A DNA stretch of 64,000 nucleotides from Longimicrobiales bacterium. Its GTDB lineage: Bacteria; Gemmatimonadota; Gemmatimonadetes; Longimicrobiales; Gaopeijiaceae. Under the pieces are notes generated by a model. That model searched no databases. It was not told the DNA's origin and was given only the letters and a program-made list of their open reading frames with translations. The first letter of the stretch is position 1. Each line of letters begins with the position of its first letter. A program made the position numbers and the translations under genes. The stretch covers positions 480,001 through 544,000 of the forward strand of contig CBDFMQ010000002.1 of NCBI GenBank assembly GCA_965249725.1. The letters are read 5' to 3'. Below are positions 2,128-19,756 of this stretch, piece by piece.

Positions 2128-3753
2128 GTGGTAGAACTCTCTAGCGGTGTAGCGGAGTTGGGCCGCGTGCCGAACCAGAGCGTGGCGAGCGTTCTTGCTG
2201 CGAGGGCGACGACAGATCCCGAAGGGGTGTTCCTGGTCCTGAACGACGAGCAGGTAACGTTCGGACAGTTGGAAAGCCGGGCAGAGGCTCTCACGGCCTC
2301 TCTCGCCGGACTCGGCATCGAGGCGGGTGACCGCGTCGCCGTCGTCATGCCCTCCTGGCCCGAGTTCGTCATCTCGATGTTCGCCGTGGCCAAGCTCGGC
2401 GCGGTTCTCGTGCCGCTGAACCCGCGAATCACCGCCACGGATCTCCAATACACTCTCCGGCACTCCGAGGCCGTGGCAGCCATCACGGCCGAGTCGCTCG
2501 GGGACCTCGACTTCCTGCAGCTCTTCGAAGACCTCCTGATTCAGCTCCCTGATCTTCAGTACCTGATTACCGTAGGTGATGAGGACCTCTGGTACGACGA
2601 TCGAATCTTCCAGTTCGAAGATCTGTTGTCTGCCGGTGGAGGTCGGGACTACGCGGCTCAGGCCGTCGAGCCGAGCGAAGACCTGTTCGCGGTTGTCTAC
2701 ACGTCGGGGACCACGGGAAAGCCGAAGGGCGTCGAGTTGACGCACAGCAACATCTTGGGGGTGGCAGCGAGTACCGCGGAGGCCCTCCGTTTGACTTCGG
2801 ACGATCGGGTAGTGGGAGTGACGGCCCTCTTCCACGTGTTCGGCCTGGGCCCGGGTGTGCTCGGGAGCCTGGTCTCGGGGTCGGCCTTGGTTCTCCAGGA
2901 CCAGTTCGGGGGCGCCGGTTCACTCGATCTGATCGAGCGCCACGGTGCGACCGTGCACCACGGCGTCCCGACGCTCTTCGCGACCGAGCTTCACGAGCAG
3001 AAGTCGCAGCCCCGTGATCTCTCTTCTCTCAGGGTGGGATTGGTAGCCGGAGCACCCGTGTCCGACGAATTCGTTTCGGCCGTCACCGAGTCCCTGTGCC
3101 CGGAACTGCTCGTGGCGTATTCCCTCACCGAGGCCTCGTCGACCGTCTGCATCACACGGTCGGACGACCCGGAGACCAAGCGTCTCTTCACGGTTGGCCG
3201 GCCCATCGAGGGCACCGAGGTGAAGATCCTCGATCCGGAGGGGGGAGAGGAGCTTCCGGTAGAGAGCGTAGGCGAGATCGGGGTGCGCGGACCGGGCGTA
3301 ATGAACGGTTACTACAGGCAGCCCAAGGAGACCGCGAACTCGTTCGACTCGGATGGGTTCTTCCTGACCGGCGACCTGGGGATGATAGACGAAGAGGGCT
3401 ACGTCCATTTGGTCGGTCGTCAGAAAGAGGTTATCATCCGCGGTGGCTACAACGTTTACCCCCGGGAAGTTGAGGATAGACTTCACTCTCACCCGGCGGT
3501 GCGGGAGGCCGTGGTGGCCGGAGTCCCAGATGATATTCTGGGAGAAGCCATCTGCGCGTGCGTCGTTCCCGACGAGGGCGCCATCGTTACCGGTCAGGAA
3601 GTCTTAGACTGGTGCGCGGCAACGCTCGCGGACTACAAGGTTCCCGATCTGGTCCACTTTGTGGACGATTTTCCAATGACGGGCACCGGCAAGGTCCGAC
3701 GAGTAGAGCTCTCACGCAGAGTTCGGGCGGAGCACGAGCGCTACAAGACATGA
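2128..3753 (+). CDS. Long-chain acyl-CoA synthetase / AMP-binding (class I adenylate-forming) enzyme
   Basis: [14 protein letters not shown]-binding loop, YSLTE, TGDLG, and C-terminal TGKV lysine. Confidence 0.9.
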   Translation: MVELSSGVAELGRVPNQSVASVLAARATTDPEGVFLVLNDEQVTFGQLESRAEALTASLAGLGIEAGDRVAVVMPSWPEFVISMFAVAKLGAVLVPLNPRITATDLQYTLRHSEAVAAITAESLGDLDFLQLFEDLLIQLPDLQYLITVGDEDLWYDDRIFQFEDLLSAGGGRDYAAQAVEPSEDLFAVVYTSGTTGKPKGVELTHSNILGVAASTAEALRLTSDDRVVGVTALFHVFGLGPGVLGSLVSGSALVLQDQFGGAGSLDLIERHGATVHHGVPTLFATELHEQKSQPRDLSSLRVGLVAGAPVSDEFVSAVTESLCPELLVAYSLTEASSTVCITRSDDPETKRLFTVGRPIEGTEVKILDPEGGEELPVESVGEIGVRGPGVMNGYYRQPKETANSFDSDGFFLTGDLGMIDEEGYVHLVGRQKEVIIRGGYNVYPREVEDRLHSHPAVREAVVAGVPDDILGEAICACVVPDEGAIVTGQEVLDWCAATLADYKVPDLVHFVDDFPMTGTGKVRRVELSRRVRAEHERYKT

Positions 3754-11286: not shown

Positions 11287-12285
11287 ATGAGCGCGAGTTT
11301 TCAGCGATCACGGGCCGTCACGGTCTTCCTTGGGGTCTGCCTGCTCGTTTTCGTCCGAGGCCTCTGCGCCCAGGCCGGAACCGTGACGGACGAAGAGAAT
11401 TTTCGCGCTCTGCCGAACGGGACCTTGCTGGGCCAACTCTACCCGGGCGCGGACCTGGCCGTGCTGGATACCTCTGGGGATTGGCTGCAGTTCGAGCTGG
11501 GGGGTTGGGTCTGGACCCCGTCGCTTCAGGTGGTGGGTCGGGGCGACTTCGATCTGGTCGTATCGGCCGTGGAGGGTGAGAACGTTCGTACCATTCCGTC
11601 CGGCGACATCATCGGCCATTTGGAGGAGGGGACTCTGCTCCAGGAGGTCGAACGCGTGCCCGGTTGGGTGAGGGTGCGCCGCACTGCCTGGATCTGGAGT
11701 CCGTCCGTGGCGCTGGAGGAGCCGAGTTCCGGAGAGTCGGCCGGGGCCGTCGACGTCGCCCTCGCCGAAGAGTGGACCATCAGGGGGGAGACCGATGCGG
11801 CGATCCTCAGCACGCCGGATGGAGATACCCTGGCCGCCGCGGCACCCGGGGCGAACCTGAGGATCCTCGCGAGAGAGGGGAACTGGGCCAGGGTCCGGAT
11901 GGACGGTTGGCTGTGGCTTCCCGAGGGAACGGCAGTAGAGGGCGAGACCACGATCCTCACGGACGTGAGCATTCAGGACGTCTCGGCGTCACCACTCGAG
12001 TATCGAGGCCGCGTTCTGCAGTGGGACGTGCAGTTCATCTCGCTGGAGCGCGCTGAGAAGATCCGCACCGACTTTTATGAGGGAGAGCCCTTCCTGCTCA
12101 CCAAGACGGGCCGCGGGGAAGGTGTCTTCGTCTATGTGGCCATTCCGCCGGAGCGGATTCAGGAGGCGGAGGGTCTGAGTCCCCTGGAGCGAATCAGGGT
12201 CGTCGGGCGTGTCAGAACCGGGGCCGCGACCCTCACGGGCAGTCCCATCCTCGAGCTGCTGGCTTTGTCGACCATTCCTCGGTGA
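11287..12285 (+). CDS. Exported protein with three bacterial SH3-like repeats and a C-terminal OB-fold-like region
   Basis: Signal peptide; repeated ENxR..P.G..LG.L..G...W..V...GW.W pattern. Confidence 0.65.
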   Translation: MSASFQRSRAVTVFLGVCLLVFVRGLCAQAGTVTDEENFRALPNGTLLGQLYPGADLAVLDTSGDWLQFELGGWVWTPSLQVVGRGDFDLVVSAVEGENVRTIPSGDIIGHLEEGTLLQEVERVPGWVRVRRTAWIWSPSVALEEPSSGESAGAVDVALAEEWTIRGETDAAILSTPDGDTLAAAAPGANLRILAREGNWARVRMDGWLWLPEGTAVEGETTILTDVSIQDVSASPLEYRGRVLQWDVQFISLERAEKIRTDFYEGEPFLLTKTGRGEGVFVYVAIPPERIQEAEGLSPLERIRVVGRVRTGAATLTGSPILELLALSTIPR

Positions 12286-14474
12286 TGGACATGCGAATGC
12301 ATCGGCTCCGAGCTGGAGTCGCATTGCTGGCATCGTTGAGCGTCGCCACCTGCTCGAAGGACGGGACCACCCAACCGCCCACGACCGACCTCGAGTTGGT
12401 GGCCGTGTCGGGAGGGGGTCAGTTCGGCCCCGCGGGTCAGTTGCTCATCGATCCCCTGATGGTGGCCGTCCAGGGAAGCGGCGATGGGCGACCCGCCGCG
12501 GATGTGACGGTGGATTGGACGGTCACCGAGGGTTCTGGGGCCGTGTTGGGACCGGCAACCAGCTCCAGCGACTCCACCGGGCTCACCACGACGGTGTTTC
12601 GGCTGGGGGCGGCGTTGGGTCGGTACCGAGTACAAGCCCGACTGCGAGATCAGCCGGAGCGATTCGTCGAATTCGAGGCCTGGGCCGTGCTGCCTCCGGC
12701 CCTCACCTCTTTGTCCTCGGCGGAAGCCGAGGCGGGGCAAGTGATCACGCTCGAAGGGGACAACTTCAGCTCGATCGCCCCTCACAACATCGTCCTGTTC
12801 TCGGGGATTCGCGGCTCCGTCGTGGCTGCGCAGCCGACACAACTCTCCGTGGAGGTGCCCCCCTGTCTCCCGAGCAGGTCGGTGGAGGTCTCGGTCCGAC
12901 TGGGAGGCGAGGCGAGCGGAGAGCTACCCCTGGCCGTCGAAGCTGCCGGGGACGGTCTGGACTTCGACGTCGGCGCGGACACTACCGTGGTGATTGGAGA
13001 GGCCCCTTCGTGTGTGCGTCTTGCCGCGGGGAATTGGCTTGCGGTGCCGCAGTCGGTGAGCTCGATCGGAGCGGCACGGTTCGACTATCGACTGACCGGC
13101 TTGCGAAAGCCGGTCGTGATCGCGTCTGGCCAGGCCCAACCGCCGGCTCGGTTGGTCGAGGCGCCGTTGCCAGGAAAGACCGCTTCCGCGGCGGGGTCTG
13201 TCCGGGAGGAGTGGAAGCTGTTCCTCAGATCCGTCGAGAAGCGGCTCTTGGGGCGAGGGCGTCGGGCCTTGGAGGGGCCGGCTCTGTCGCCTTCGGCTCT
13301 GTTGCCTCCGGCCCCCGATGTGGGCGATCGAAGGGACTTTGAGGTGGTACGCAGCGACGGAGACTTCGACCAGATCACTGCAGAGGTACGGGTGATCTCG
13401 GAGCGAGCGATTCTATACGTCGATGTCGAAGCGCTGGCCGATTTTCCACAGCAGGATGTCGAGCGTTTCGGCACCATCTTCGATGATCCGATCTACACGG
13501 TCGACGCCGCCGCCTTCGGCAATCCGTCCGACGTGGACCAAAACGGCAAGGTGCTCATTCTCTTCACCCCCGGCGTCAACCGGCTCACCAGCCCGGGGTC
13601 CAGCGATTTCGTGGGGGGGTTCTTCTTCGGTCTCGATCTGTTCACCGAGGCCGAGCACAGCAACGCGGCTGAGGTCTTCTACGTGATGGTGCCCGATCCG
13701 ACGGGCAAGTACGGGAACGTGCAGAACCTCGACGTCATTCGGACGACCGTGCCGGCCATTCTCGCCCACGAGCTGCAGCACATGATCAGCCACAATGAGA
13801 GGATCATCGAGCGCGACGGCGAGCGTGCCGACGCACTCTGGCTCTCCGAGGCTCTAGCCCAGATGGGCGAGGACCTGGTCGGAGAAGAGTTGCGGAGGAG
13901 GGGGAGCTCCGAGGCTGCGGACTATCAGAAGGGCAATTGGCGACGCGCGAATCGCTTCCTCGAGGACCCGGCGGACGTGAGCCTGATCGTCGCCACCGGC
14001 CAGGGAACGCTCGCCGAGCGCGGTGCGGGATGGATGTTCGTTCGCTATCTGAGGGATCAGGCCGGGAGCAACGCCGTGCTGGTGCGGTTAACGCAGACCA
14101 CGCTTACCGGTATCGACAACGTCGAGGAGGTGACGGGTGAGTCTTGGGAAGACCTGTTCTCGGACTGGAGTGCGGCTATTGCGGTTGAGGGCCAACTCGC
14201 AGAGGGCGGCCCGCTGTCTGTCCGTTCTGGTCTGGAGTTTCCCGGTGTGGACCTCGTGGAGACCTTTACCGAAGGGGTTGGAGACTATTCGTTGATCCCC
14301 ACTCTGCTCACCGTTGGTGACTTCAATGCCAACGGGCGACTTTGGTCGTCGGCGGGTGCACACTTCTTGCTGGGAAGTGGGGAGGGCGGATTGGCCCTGA
14401 GTCTGGCCGGAGCGGAGGGGGGAGTGGCTCCTCCTCAGGCCGGTCTCCGGCTCAAGCTCGTGAGGTTGTTCTAG
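12282..14474 (+). CDS. Lipoprotein with Ig-like/IPT-TIG domains and a zinc metallopeptidase domain (M30/hyicolysin-like)
   Basis: Lipobox-like VATC, GQVITLEGDNF IPT motif, and AHELQHMI followed by WLSEALA. Confidence 0.75.
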   Translation: MMDMRMHRLRAGVALLASLSVATCSKDGTTQPPTTDLELVAVSGGGQFGPAGQLLIDPLMVAVQGSGDGRPAADVTVDWTVTEGSGAVLGPATSSSDSTGLTTTVFRLGAALGRYRVQARLRDQPERFVEFEAWAVLPPALTSLSSAEAEAGQVITLEGDNFSSIAPHNIVLFSGIRGSVVAAQPTQLSVEVPPCLPSRSVEVSVRLGGEASGELPLAVEAAGDGLDFDVGADTTVVIGEAPSCVRLAAGNWLAVPQSVSSIGAARFDYRLTGLRKPVVIASGQAQPPARLVEAPLPGKTASAAGSVREEWKLFLRSVEKRLLGRGRRALEGPALSPSALLPPAPDVGDRRDFEVVRSDGDFDQITAEVRVISERAILYVDVEALADFPQQDVERFGTIFDDPIYTVDAAAFGNPSDVDQNGKVLILFTPGVNRLTSPGSSDFVGGFFFGLDLFTEAEHSNAAEVFYVMVPDPTGKYGNVQNLDVIRTTVPAILAHELQHMISHNERIIERDGERADALWLSEALAQMGEDLVGEELRRRGSSEAADYQKGNWRRANRFLEDPADVSLIVATGQGTLAERGAGWMFVRYLRDQAGSNAVLVRLTQTTLTGIDNVEEVTGESWEDLFSDWSAAIAVEGQLAEGGPLSVRSGLEFPGVDLVETFTEGVGDYSLIPTLLTVGDFNANGRLWSSAGAHFLLGSGEGGLALSLAGAEGGVAPPQAGLRLKLVRLF

Positions 14475-14569: not shown

Positions 14570-15367
14570 ATGCGCTGTTCTACCTGTGGTGAGCATCTAA
14601 GAGAGCACGAAACCGCTTGTCCCACGTGTGGGGTGGCGGTTTCGTCTCGCTCTATCGTGCGTCCGGTGGGGGTGGGCGTTCGGAATTGTCCTCGGTGCGC
14701 CTACGTCGGGAACGGAATCGAGTACTTCAAGCGGCCCGGACACATGGGTCTCCTCATCGGCGTTTCGCTCTTCACGTATGGACTGGGGGGACTGGCGTAC
14801 TGGCTGGCCCGCCGGAAACACCGCATCTGCCCGCAGTGTGGGCTCGGCTGGGAGAACGCGGCGGTGCTCGGACCCGGCCAGGGGCGTGCGCCTGCGTTGG
14901 CCGGGGTCACCGGTGCCGGTCCTCAATTCGGGGCGGATGAAGAGCTTCCCAGACGCGGACTCGCACGGAGAGTGATCGGTGTGGGCATGGTGCTCGCGGC
15001 GGCGCTGATGATTTCGGTCGGCTTCGTCAATTTCGAGTTGGCCGCCGTGGCCGTCGGGAGCGTGCTGGGTGCGGGCGGCACCGGCACCATTTGGTGGGGT
15101 CTCAAGGCCCGCCAGGATCGCCGGAATGCGCTCATGACGCGATTGCAGGGAAGCGTCCTACTCCTGGCCACCGAAAAGGGTGGAACGCTCACCGTGACCG
15201 AGGTAGCCGCCTCACTGAACCTGTCCTTGTCAGCTGCGGAGGGTGTGCTGGAAGGCATGGACGACGGGCTCAGGGTCCGGTCCGACGTGACCAACCAGGG
15301 CATCATCGTGTACGAGTTTCCCGAGGTCAGGCATCACCCCAGGCTCGAGTCGGGCTCGAAGAGCTAG
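14570..15367 (+). CDS. Membrane protein with zinc ribbons and a C-terminal winged-helix-like region
   Basis: Four CxxC motifs (CSTC, CPTC, CPRC, CPQC), hydrophobic segments and GGTLTVTEVAASLNLS. Confidence 0.65.
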   Translation: MRCSTCGEHLREHETACPTCGVAVSSRSIVRPVGVGVRNCPRCAYVGNGIEYFKRPGHMGLLIGVSLFTYGLGGLAYWLARRKHRICPQCGLGWENAAVLGPGQGRAPALAGVTGAGPQFGADEELPRRGLARRVIGVGMVLAAALMISVGFVNFELAAVAVGSVLGAGGTGTIWWGLKARQDRRNALMTRLQGSVLLLATEKGGTLTVTEVAASLNLSLSAAEGVLEGMDDGLRVRSDVTNQGIIVYEFPEVRHHPRLESGSKS

Positions 15368-16476: not shown

Positions 16477-18300
16477 ATGCCCACTTCGAACGTCCCACGC
16501 CTTGAAGACTACCGCAGCGGGCGGGCAAAACGGTCTGAGCAGACCGCGGCGCTTTACCGAGGAGATCCCGCACGGTCTTGCCTTTTGGGGCATCTTGCCT
16601 CGGCGCAAGAGTTGGTGGGGGCCGATCGGGCCGCTGTGGTATGGGTCGACGAGTATGGCCCAGGCTTGGTTCACGTCCATTGCCTACTCGATCTCGTAGG
16701 GAACCCTCCGCGACGCGATTCTGTAGCCCAGGCGTGCAGGGTAGCCTGGGGCAAGGGTGTGCCCGGTCTCCTCGATGTGCCGGACGTAGAGCGCGGCGGT
16801 GGAATCCCCATATCCGGGGTCCGCAGCTCTTGCTGCGTTGCGATGGGAAGCGATGGGACCCGCGCGTGGTTCCTGGTGGTCGACTCCCTGACACCTCGAT
16901 CGTGCTTGGCGGTCGAGGTCACCGACGAATTGATGTTCGTTGCGGGTGAAGCCGCTGCGGTGGTTCTCCATCAGGATCTGGACCGCAAGGCCACTGGCCC
17001 GAGGCGATTCGGAAAGAGTGCCAGTCCGGAGGCCGGTGAGACCTTCTCGGGATGGGCGATCCTCAAGGACCTCGACGGTCGTGAGGCGGACGCCGAAACG
17101 AATCGCCGCATCGCTACGCGCTTCCTCGTCGCACGTGCGGTGCGCTCCGCTCTGGACGAGGAGCTCACCATGGATCCCGAGGCTCTTCGGCAGCAGGTCG
17201 AAGGAGTGGGGCGTGAGCTCGACGCGGTAGAGCGGGGCGATCCCGAACGCACGGCCTGGGGAGAGGTCCTAGAGGCTCTCGGCTCCGGGGACGGGGTCGA
17301 GCTTGGACGTTCTCTCCTCGAGTTGGCGGATCGCGTGGACATGCTCGGGCACCTGCATGGGTCCCGCGAGCTGTGCAGTCTCGCCTACCAGGTAGCCGTG
17401 ACCTGTGGGTCTGGTGCGATCGCCGGTACCGCGGCCCGCTTCCTGGGTAGAACGCATCGGCGGCTCGGGGCGTGGGAGGACAGCGAAACTTGGTACGGCG
17501 TAGCCCAAAACCTGGGCGAGGCGCTCGGCGACGGGAGGCTCTCGGCTCTGGCCACGAACGGTCTTGGGAGCACCAGCCGCGAGAAGGGCAACCTGCCGCG
17601 GGCTCTCGAGCTGCACACCGAGACTCTGCAATGGGGCGTCGAGGACGGGGACCGCTACATCCAGGGGCTCAGTCATCACGATCTGATGACGGACCAGAAG
17701 CTGTCAGGGCGTTTCGGAGACGCGATTCGGCATGGCTGGGAGGCGGTTCGCCTCTATCCATCCGAGCGAGACCAGCTGCAGGCCCTCACCGACCTGGCAT
17801 GGGCGTTCGTCGAGGTGGGCGAGTACGGAGCTGCCGAGGATGCCTACACCGTGGTGGCGCATCGCACGCAGGACTTCAGATATCGGGTGTATGCGCTCGA
17901 CGCCCTGGCGTATATCGAGGCTCTCCTCGGGAGACGCGAACAGTTCGAGGATCGTATCCAGGCGGTTGACGAAACCCCCTGGAGGACCGGACAGCCCTTC
18001 ATGGTCTCGGAGCTACTCTACTACCGAGGCAAGGCGTACGGCCTTTTGGGCGACGTCGAACTGGCACAGCGTTGGCTTGCGGAGGCGAAAGCCTACTCCG
18101 AAGAACACGGCAACAACCAGATTTCATTCCAGGCGGAGACGGCCCTCGAAGCCCTCGAGTCTGGAGAACTCACGGATGAGGACGCGAGCGGCCGCGCCGA
18201 GCCCGTATCGCTCGACGATATCGATGGCGTCCGCACCGAGCTGAGCTCGATGCGGGGCCAGTTGGTTACAGCAGGTGGAGCGGAGGTACCGGCTACTTAG
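16477..18300 (+). CDS. Cytoplasmic protein with an N-terminal GAF-like region and C-terminal tetratricopeptide repeats
   Basis: LVGADRAAVVW...GVRSSCCVAM GAF-like pattern; TPR-like units (LGRTHRRLGAWEDSETWY, LGSTSREKGNLPRALELH, LAWAFVEVGEYGAAEDAY, GKAYGLLGDVELAQRWL); no signal peptide. Confidence 0.75.
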   Translation: MPTSNVPRLEDYRSGRAKRSEQTAALYRGDPARSCLLGHLASAQELVGADRAAVVWVDEYGPGLVHVHCLLDLVGNPPRRDSVAQACRVAWGKGVPGLLDVPDVERGGGIPISGVRSSCCVAMGSDGTRAWFLVVDSLTPRSCLAVEVTDELMFVAGEAAAVVLHQDLDRKATGPRRFGKSASPEAGETFSGWAILKDLDGREADAETNRRIATRFLVARAVRSALDEELTMDPEALRQQVEGVGRELDAVERGDPERTAWGEVLEALGSGDGVELGRSLLELADRVDMLGHLHGSRELCSLAYQVAVTCGSGAIAGTAARFLGRTHRRLGAWEDSETWYGVAQNLGEALGDGRLSALATNGLGSTSREKGNLPRALELHTETLQWGVEDGDRYIQGLSHHDLMTDQKLSGRFGDAIRHGWEAVRLYPSERDQLQALTDLAWAFVEVGEYGAAEDAYTVVAHRTQDFRYRVYALDALAYIEALLGRREQFEDRIQAVDETPWRTGQPFMVSELLYYRGKAYGLLGDVELAQRWLAEAKAYSEEHGNNQISFQAETALEALESGELTDEDASGRAEPVSLDDIDGVRTELSSMRGQLVTAGGAEVPAT

Positions 18301-18536
18301 CCGTTGCCGCCCGGATTGTGCCCGTTACCACCGGGGTTATGTCCGTTGCCACCAGGATTATGCCCGTTGCCACCAGGATTATGCCCGTTGCCGCCGGGGT
18401 TATGGCCGTTGCCGCCAGGATTGTGAGTCTGGCAGAGGCTGTCACCGGCTGCGCAGTCCAGGCCTGCGGGCGATGAGCAGGCGCTCAGGGCGAACGAAAG
18501 GGCGGCGACGGCGAAACAGAGGCGAAGCTTGGTCAT
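18297..18536 (-). CDS. 79-aa lipoprotein / candidate peptide precursor with six C-terminal HNPGGNG repeats
   Basis: AAGGAA RBS upstream of ATG 18536; signal peptide with lipobox LSAC (Cys20); repeat copies differ only at synonymous positions. Confidence 0.85.
   Translation of the reverse strand: MTKLRLCFAVAALSFALSACSSPAGLDCAAGDSLCQTHNPGGNGHNPGGNGHNPGGNGHNPGGNGHNPGGNGHNPGGNG
18300..18425 (-). repeat. 6 x 21-bp coding tandem repeat (HNPGGNG)
   Basis: Units at 18300, 18321, 18342, 18363, 18384 and 18405; minus-strand consensus CAY AAY CCN GGY GGY AAC GGN. Confidence 0.97.
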
Positions 18537-18668
18537 CAAACCAGTTTCCTTCCAGAAGAGAGACTCTGGCTGGGGAGTACGGTACGTCATAGCTTGGTTG
18601 TAAGGTGGATGCGGCATCTTTGGGTGCCGCAATCCTTTCCGACTAGGGGTATACCTTTTCCGAAGGTC

Positions 18669-19472
18669 ATGGCACTAGTAAGCACGTTTACACGGGATCC
18701 GGAGGTTCAGGCGGGCCTCCGAGAGGCGCTCTCGACCGTGCACGACGTCGCCGAGTCCAGGACGCTCGGATGGCTCGCGCTGTCGCTGCGAGAGCGTCCT
18801 GTGAGCGTGTGTATGATCGATTTGGCGTCGATGGGATGGGGTCCGGGCGGACTCGAGCGACTGTTGAGGGTGCGACGCCAGTTTCCGAGCGTCGGGTTCG
18901 TGCTTCTGGCGGGAGCCAAAGAGGATCCCCGGACGCTTTTCGAGGTGGGTCGCCTCGGTTTTCGGAGTCTGGTGGTGCTGAACACCGAGAATCAGGCGTG
19001 GCGGCTGCGCCGAAGCGTGGACAAGGCCCAGGAGAGGGGCGTGACGTCGCGTGTACTCCGCGAGGTGAGCCCCGAGATTGCGCCGCGCGAAACCAAGGCG
19101 CTCCGGCTGGTACTGGACGAGGTCCACAAGTGCTGGTCCGCCGAGGCCTTTTCCGACCTCATGGGCTTGTCCCGTCCCTTCCTGAGCGTCTGTCTGAAGA
19201 GGTCGGGCCTGCCGGCCATCGGACGTCTCCTCGTGTGGTCGAGACTCCTCCATGCCGGCAACTGGCTGGGAGATCCCGGACGGACGGGACAGAGTGTCAG
19301 CCGGCAGCTGGAGTACTCGTCCGGCGCGGCCTTCCGAAGGGCGCTGAAGAGCTACACCGGCGCCACGCCCACCACGGTGGCTTCGCATGGAGGTCTGACC
19401 TTCGTGCTCAGGCACTTTCTGCACGATTGCGGGTTTGAGACTCCGGCCACACCACGCATCTCCGTGGCTTGA
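18669..19472 (+). CDS. AraC-family transcriptional regulator with a degenerate receiver-like N-terminal domain
   Basis: C-terminal double HTH (SAEAFSDLMGLS...VSRQLEYSSGAAFRRALKSYTGATP); N-terminal PVSVCMIDL and FPSVGFVLLA resemble receiver strands beta3 and beta4. Confidence 0.85.
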   Translation: MALVSTFTRDPEVQAGLREALSTVHDVAESRTLGWLALSLRERPVSVCMIDLASMGWGPGGLERLLRVRRQFPSVGFVLLAGAKEDPRTLFEVGRLGFRSLVVLNTENQAWRLRRSVDKAQERGVTSRVLREVSPEIAPRETKALRLVLDEVHKCWSAEAFSDLMGLSRPFLSVCLKRSGLPAIGRLLVWSRLLHAGNWLGDPGRTGQSVSRQLEYSSGAAFRRALKSYTGATPTTVASHGGLTFVLRHFLHDCGFETPATPRISVA

Positions 19473-19519: not shown

Positions 19520-19756
19520 ATGACTGAATTCCTGGACGAATCAGGACGCGCCTGGGTGGCGACCGTACGATCGGAGTCGGGTACGGACTACAAGGGCCGC
19601 TACTACCTGTACCTCGCGGAAGAAGGTGCGACCGACGCCGGAGTCAGCCTTCTGGACGTGCGGTGGAACAGCCCGGGCACGGCGGAACGAGCGCTCTCCA
19701 CGATGTCCGACGTCGAGTTGCGCAGGCGACTACGGTCAGCCCTGGGACGGGCCTAA
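19520..19756 (+). CDS. Small hypothetical protein (78 aa)
   Basis: Clean ORF filling the gap between AraC and dacB; protein-like composition. Confidence 0.65.
   Translation: MTEFLDESGRAWVATVRSESGTDYKGRYYLYLAEEGATDAGVSLLDVRWNSPGTAERALSTMSDVELRRRLRSALGRA

Follow-up and report, generated by a model that had tools for sequence, protein, structure and literature searches.

Gene organization of the locus

The window analyzed in this work, that is, the whole 64,000-nucleotide stretch of Longimicrobiales DNA, contains three adjoining genes: one for a protein with GAF and TPR domains, a second, convergent with it, for a lipoprotein precursor, and a divergent third for an AraC-type regulator. The features of the region are the following.

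16477..18300 (+): gene for a 607-amino acid receptor candidate that lacks a signal peptide and any enzymatic domain (TPR_12 match, fold model)
17437..17463 (+): conserved arginine cluster R321/R325/R328/R329 in helix A of TPR2
17899..17901 (+): Asp475, position 5 of TPR6, co-varying with position 1 of the peptide
18297..18536 (-): gene for a 79-amino acid lipoprotein-type propeptide (translation; precursor or remnant at related loci)
18300..18425 (-): array of six HNPGGNG cores placed head-to-tail and ending at the stop codon; HNPGGNG is the predicted mature heptapeptide
18426..18476 (-): 17-amino acid linker with two optional cysteines, Cys28 and Cys35 (translation)
18477..18536 (-): predicted signal peptide with lipobox LSA-C, Cys20 (sequence pattern; lipobox-like Cys in relatives)
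18632..18668 (+): conserved non-coding sequence between the divergent genes, in their promoter region, just 5' of the regulator's ATG
18669..19472 (+): gene for a 267-amino acid AraC-type regulator whose N-terminal domain is receiver-like (HTH_18)

The propeptide gene starts with the ATG at 18536, preceded by a Shine-Dalgarno-like GGAAGGA found by direct reading. By pattern, the N-terminus has a basic N-region, a hydrophobic core and a lipobox, and is of the SPII rather than the SPI type; a member of the LspA family is encoded in the genome, and a lipobox-like Cys is also found in the precursors of relatives. The first unit of the array occupies positions 18405-18425 and the last 18300-18320, with a TAA stop directly after it. 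All six 21-nt units are distinct. They differ in six columns, every one a third codon position, and can be related by a minimum of eight changes, all eight synonymous (neutral P between 1e-5 and 4e-5). The preliminary description of this DNA had reported six HNPGGNG peptides encoded by six different sequences, with differences solely at third positions and the last unit at the stop, behind an LSAC lipoprotein signal and a 17-residue linker with two cysteines; the translation, the units and their coordinates bear this out in full. The sequence HNPGG occurs seven times in the six frames of the genome, six of them within the array. The array is no assembly artefact, because contigs from 4/4 public runs, one of them possibly the source sample, cover it without differing letters or gaps.

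Variation and selection of the peptide among relatives

Precursors at related loci, 35-98 amino acids long where intact, carry locus-specific cores of 6 or 7 residues in 1-10 copies. The 84 loci compared hold 64 different cores, a typical 7-mer being [HY]-x-[PLI]-[GD]-x-[GN]-[NSG]. The register of the cores was fixed from single-copy relatives (19 of the 85 precursors score as single-copy) and from the position of the last core, which abuts the stop codon in 64 of the 84 loci; 59 of the 66 arrays have a period of 7. Neither a spacer nor a common cleavage motif was found between cores. Two extra linker cysteines are present in 32/84 precursors and none in 51/84: the two cysteines are dispensable.

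In the 66 arrays, 339 synonymous changes were counted against 47 non-synonymous ones, a rate ratio per site of about 0.04, the figure of 47 being inflated by the inclusion of short tails read in register. Copy numbers of 5 and 2 are found beside nearly identical receptors (L015 and L108), and two species of one genus share an identical last unit while their internal units have turned over. Slippage acts alongside purifying selection. The earlier proposal of purifying selection rather than slippage is upheld in its first half, by the excess of synonymous changes, and fails in its second, copy number and unit turnover showing that slippage is active. Copy-number and sequence variation, which the same description had suggested seeking in relatives, is abundant, and it does away with the idea of selection for the exact peptide HNPGGNG: cores differ among lineages, and the target of selection is the peptide within a lineage, not HNPGGNG as such.

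Some individual loci deserve mention. In a same-genus species (L003/L027; G001:C10), one of the six cores reads HNPGGKG. At L011 (G026:C36, about 3260-3450) a premature TAA lies ahead of mixed cores (TPDSGN, HNPDGGS twice and a degenerate fourth) while receptor and regulator are intact, possibly a non-signalling "listener" or else an assembly error. Four loci (L049, L056, L081 and L246) have a single core of the GPNT/GSNT type between two cysteines, which suggests disulfide-closed forms. Two precursor genes lie in tandem at L049 and at L024.

Linkage and distribution of the three genes

The long form of the TPR protein is present in 96/313 genomes of this Longimicrobiales family. Of 99 distinct long-form loci, 82 have room for a precursor, meaning 350 nt or more beyond the stop codon of the TPR gene. 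A precursor or its remnant was found at 82/82 of these: one finder recovered 77 and another four, the last being a frameshifted remnant at L029, where the receptor gene also has an internal stop. Fifty further regions were added; the TPR end lies within 49 and room for the precursor within 47, and all 47 have one (44 by the finder, 3 by reading). The regulator was present at 75/75 loci with room for it. Conversely, at 10/10 empty sites, in genomes lacking the long TPR protein, the TPR gene, precursor, regulator and intergenic motif are jointly absent and the flanking genes are kept. Among 36 genomes of the same family, the 16 with a long TPR protein have an orthologue of the regulator (15 whole, one a fragment at a contig edge), and the remaining 20 gave no regulator match better than E 4e-20. 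From this pattern the three genes are gained and lost as one unit, which consists of these genes and contains no enzyme, protease or transporter. The cassette is usually single-copy, at a fixed chromosomal site, and no relatives were detected in IMG/VR or in the plasmid and phage collections at the sensitivities used.

Several neighboring genes were considered as parts of the cassette and rejected. The 78-amino acid ORF at 19520-19756 is kept at 9/10 empty sites, DacB at 10/10 and EamA, found near 62/99 loci, at 7/10; the ORF at 14570-15367 occurs in 35/36 family genomes. A 730-amino acid lipoprotein-like protein with Ig/TIG domains and a zinc-peptidase-like HELQH motif, encoded at 12282-14474 (+) in the window, lies two genes upstream in 40/99 loci and is a candidate processing enzyme by proximity only.

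A shorter TPR form without the GAF domain (about 421-433 amino acids) is found in 31/73 genomes of a sister family; no convergent precursor was seen at three of the five short-form receptors inspected there (L021-L023), and at the other two, L019 and L020, regulator and GAF-less TPR gene stand in tandem with a convergent precursor that has an acidic linker and ends in NNN. No match of the TPR form was obtained in 71 genomes of a third family. None of 19 regulator loci examined in a more distant family, four of them with a detectable TPR gene, showed a convergent precursor. Elsewhere in the genome under study (G000:C3:2921139-2923632, outside the window), the gene of a TPR protein partially similar to GAF faces a convergent 45-amino acid ORF of the lipoprotein type, in which two cysteines bracket the tail; a 208-amino acid gene (-) lies beyond, with no adjoining AraC orthologue.

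The receptor candidate and the regulator

The 607-amino acid protein, whose stop codon overlaps that of the precursor gene tail-to-tail, comprises a GAF-like domain (residues ~9-172), a helical linker (206-270) and seven TPRs (273-561). Its match to Pfam TPR_12 is above the cut-off. An AF2 model (pLDDT 90.9) shows an alpha/beta domain, the helical linker and seven helix pairs; the first domain is assigned as GAF-like from an Atlas cluster (0.90), with no Pfam match. There is no DNA-binding domain. Comparison of the TPR part with RapH gave Z 17.0 and an rmsd of 4.6 over 287 residues. Identity is 10-14%, with Rap and NprR ranking among or below unrelated TPR proteins such as LGN and OGT; an NprR profile matches at E 3e-4. 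The arginines at 321, 325, 328 and 329 occur in 75, 71, 79 and 65 of 79 receptors, respectively, and are a candidate clamp for the C-terminus of the peptide.

The regulator gene lies head-to-head with the precursor gene. A start at TTG 18594 was rejected in favor of ATG 18669, as Met1 is invariant in 60 orthologues. Its HTH_18 match falls below the curated cut-off and its N-terminal domain weakly resembles the HupR1 receiver (E 0.036); this domain may be read as a pseudo-receiver, because no Lys is conserved while Asp51 is 95% conserved. The intergenic element follows the pattern ATC-N-TTT ... GGTAT[AG][TC]CTTTT[CT]CGAAG and was found at 73/84 loci (six were too short and five had no match). 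Its position makes it a candidate operator or pair of overlapping promoters. A motif matrix finds one site only in the whole genome, pointing to no wider regulon. About 1 kb of extra sequence breaks the upstream reading frame of the regulator near its start in L003/L027, and a stand-alone receiver-like/AraC paralogue is encoded at G000:C1:88832-89632, with no TPR or precursor gene detected within about 2.5 kb.

Correlated changes in peptide and receptor

Co-variation was scored by counting, on a tree of the 79 receptor rows, the branches along which a position of the peptide and a column of the receptor both change. This first set left out L010 (ambiguous register), L031, L065 and L066 (receptor frameshift or stop), L112 (a duplicate of L043) and any locus lacking a 7-mer core. 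Ligand contacts in TPR proteins fall at helix-A positions 2, 5, 6, 9, 12 and 13, according to passages of PMC1261162. These groove positions make up 10 of the top 25 among 539 receptor columns, and their excess score of 1.05 compares with 0.21 (maximum 0.48) for control traits taken from the signal peptide. Restricting the analysis to residues 250 onward left an excess of 1.01, a value reached by 0/1000 matched pseudo-trait sets. Copy number, used as a trait, gave no co-variation signal with the receptor columns. Because the groove set had been named after the first ranking was seen, a held-out test was carried out with fixed positions. It yielded an excess of 0.51 against 0.01 +/- 0.14 for the control (0/1000) in 33 held-out loci that overlap the first set in genera and include some near-duplicates of it, and is the only clean test of the series. 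Excluded from it were nine exact duplicates, loci where the finder called no precursor, those with short receptors, two with 6-mer cores and L247 (wrong ORF); L231, which is mis-cored, was kept.

Receptor columns paired with peptide position 1 lie in TPR6-7, and those paired with positions 5 and 7 in TPR3-4 (Spearman -0.54, p 0.02, over 18 selected columns), the latter columns adjoining the almost invariant arginine cluster of TPR2. Asp475 is present in 68/68 loci of the first set and 27/27 of the held-out set with His or Tyr at position 1. It is missing in 8 of the 11 other first-set loci, among them a species of the same genus that combines LAPGGNG with Gln475. The held-out set has Glu475 at four loci with Ile or Val at position 1 and at one with Gly. 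As exceptions, four Gly-1 loci of one genus (GHPTTGS/GFPTTGN) keep Asp475, and L231 (YESGPNN/YEAGPNT, Tyr-1) has Gly475. Of 6 independent pairs, 5.8 agree with the position 1/Asp475 association (p 0.03, uncorrected), the sole one of six residue-pair tests to fall below 0.05; the other five are not significant. When background identity is matched, identity in the groove generally decreases with increasing divergence of the cores (4/4 bins), not strictly so at the largest distances. Taken over these comparisons, the residues of the receptor groove change when the peptide changes.

A probable peptide signalling cassette and its alternatives

We favor, with a probability of about 65%, the reading that the ORF at 18297..18536 encodes the propeptide of a peptide/TPR-receptor signalling cassette that would work like Bacillus Rap-Phr. 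The multi-copy pheromone precursor envisaged in the preliminary description is thereby supported; that description had missed the neighboring TPR receptor candidate and regulator. The precursor would be exported and lipidated at Cys20, and a general envelope protease might free up to six HNPGGNG heptamers from each molecule. An oligopeptide importer could then carry the peptide back into the cytoplasm (the genome encodes binding proteins of the Opp type and PTR2 transporters), where it would lie antiparallel in the TPR groove, with His1 near Asp475 and Tyr516 (TPR6-7) and its C-terminus near the arginine cluster of TPR2. The TPR protein might conceivably bind the neighboring AraC regulator at its receiver-like domain and act on it much as Rap does on response regulators. 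That regulator would read the intergenic element and may in this way exert feedback on the expression of the precursor. A second input would enter through the GAF domain, and the diverse cores would represent lineage-specific signal types. A fuller version of this scheme is put forward tentatively, at somewhat less than even odds: an independently evolved, lipoprotein-based peptide quorum sensing of a diderm phylum, in which there would be dozens of lineage-specific heptapeptides, each precursor could amplify its signal as much as tenfold, and a TPR receptor gated by GAF would control a dedicated receiver-like/AraC regulator, the code between peptide and receptor being partly readable from sequence.

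The chief rival retains the same ligand-receptor pair and makes it cell-autonomous, the peptide being cleaved in the periplasm of the producing cell and taken up again as a timer or as a gauge of secretion, of an envelope protease or of outer-membrane leakiness. Co-evolution fits signalling between cells and such self-sensing equally well. A lipid anchor and an outer membrane, as is established for diderm lipoproteins, would favor retention; a single-copy cassette at a fixed chromosomal site also suits a private circuit. Such a circuit, however, hardly accounts for the 64 cores among 84 loci and the receptor changes that match them, and it poorly explains the amplification of copy number, the repeated loss, or the broken precursors found next to receptor genes that are kept (L011, L029). 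We consider it unlikely, though a serious contender.

It is improbable that the lipoprotein tail stays uncleaved as a surface or contact tag, or that the peptide restrains a toxic or abortive TPR effector in an addiction or defense system. Cores with no cleavage motif between them, the patchy presence of the cassette and a weak, generic PADLOC match to a TPR protein (E 6e-4) would fit. Against this, the TPR protein has neither an enzymatic domain nor a signal peptide and is therefore out of reach of an anchored tail; the precursor of L011 has its premature stop beside an intact receptor; and the phage, plasmid and viral collections searched contain no relatives.

The multi-core RiPP precursor suggested earlier, with cores modified by enzymes encoded elsewhere, is very improbable: a leader followed by repeated cores and a weak match to the RiPP-associated TPR protein HaaT speak for it, but that match scores 27 bits against a cut-off of 1125, the gained and lost unit brings no modifying enzyme, the signal is of the exported lipoprotein type and not a RiPP leader, and the cores co-vary with a TPR groove. 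Slighter still are the chances of a surface metal-binding repeat, with His every seven residues and, after cleavage, an ATCUN site (a conserved free N-terminal Xaa-Xaa-His): His, where present, is mostly at position 1 of the stop-anchored register (49/84 cores), yet the idea is weakened because 32/84 cores have none (Tyr, Ile, Gly, Leu or Val replacing it at position 1), 19/85 precursors score as single-copy, NGH forms solely across unit junctions, and position 1 co-varies with a cytoplasmic protein.

Comparison with known peptide/TPR systems

The cassette resembles Rap-Phr in having a small propeptide, predicted to be exported and with a C-terminal core, adjoining a seven-TPR protein that lacks a DNA-binding domain. 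Intragenic repeats and whole-gene duplications are a further likeness: passages of PMC5199041 document identical and diverged intragenic repeats in Phr and NprX as well as duplications, and duplications occur here at L024 and L049. Groove polarity is similar too, D338 and Q182 of Rap contacting the N- and C-terminal ends of the peptide, respectively, in the account of PMC11343458. The Rap subfamily, on the other hand, anchors the peptide main chain with a conserved Asn (N226/N220), as described in sections of the same article. The cassette receptor has no such residue: Asn is conserved at none of 36 groove positions, the commonest being position 365 (27/79), the equivalent of the Rap residue being mapped inexactly. 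It also differs from Rap-Phr in its diderm host, convergent genes and chromosomal location, in the lipoprotein signal found throughout, in the receptor of 607 residues with its N-terminal GAF domain, in the up to 10 abutting cores and in the dedicated AraC partner.

NprR and PlcR bind DNA themselves through an HTH, and the mature NprX and PapR peptides have 7-8 residues; in the cassette, by contrast, the HTH sits on the separate AraC protein. The pairing of a TPR receptor with a short peptide is common to NprR-NprX, PlcR-PapR and the present system, and duplications of nprX are recorded in passages of PMC5199041.

Criteria for RRNPP systems, in a section of PMC10075063, are a propeptide of 10-100 amino acids, its secretion by Sec, a receptor of 250-500 amino acids, TPRs in that receptor and direct neighborhood of the two genes. 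Three of these five are seen in the cassette (propeptide length, receptor TPRs and direct neighborhood, in convergent orientation); the receptor, at 607 amino acids, exceeds the length range because of its GAF domain. Of the RRNPPA propeptides counted in one part of PMC9765709, just 211/2734 are predicted SPII. We do not file the cassette as an RRNPP member because it lacks the conserved groove Asn and may or may not share descent with Rap, NprR, PlcR and AimR.

Among the titles and abstract openings from a search of openly accessible literature, none describes the cassette, although supplementary lists of RRNPP surveys could bear on novelty, and PMC12700828 mentions neither "Gemmatimonad" nor "diderm". 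The cassette is a real and conserved, and probably undescribed, peptide/TPR-receptor system of a diderm phylum. Its more than 110 natural receptor/peptide pairs provide cognate and non-cognate controls, so that the proposal is testable without culturing, and Asp475 offers a sharp prediction of specificity from one residue. Cytoplasmic signalling by peptides and TPR receptors is described in PMC10075063 and PMC9765709 as a feature of Firmicutes. If the proposal is true, a candidate communication channel would be at hand for the poorly cultured phylum Gemmatimonadota, and double-membrane bacteria would also signal with exported, re-imported linear peptides.
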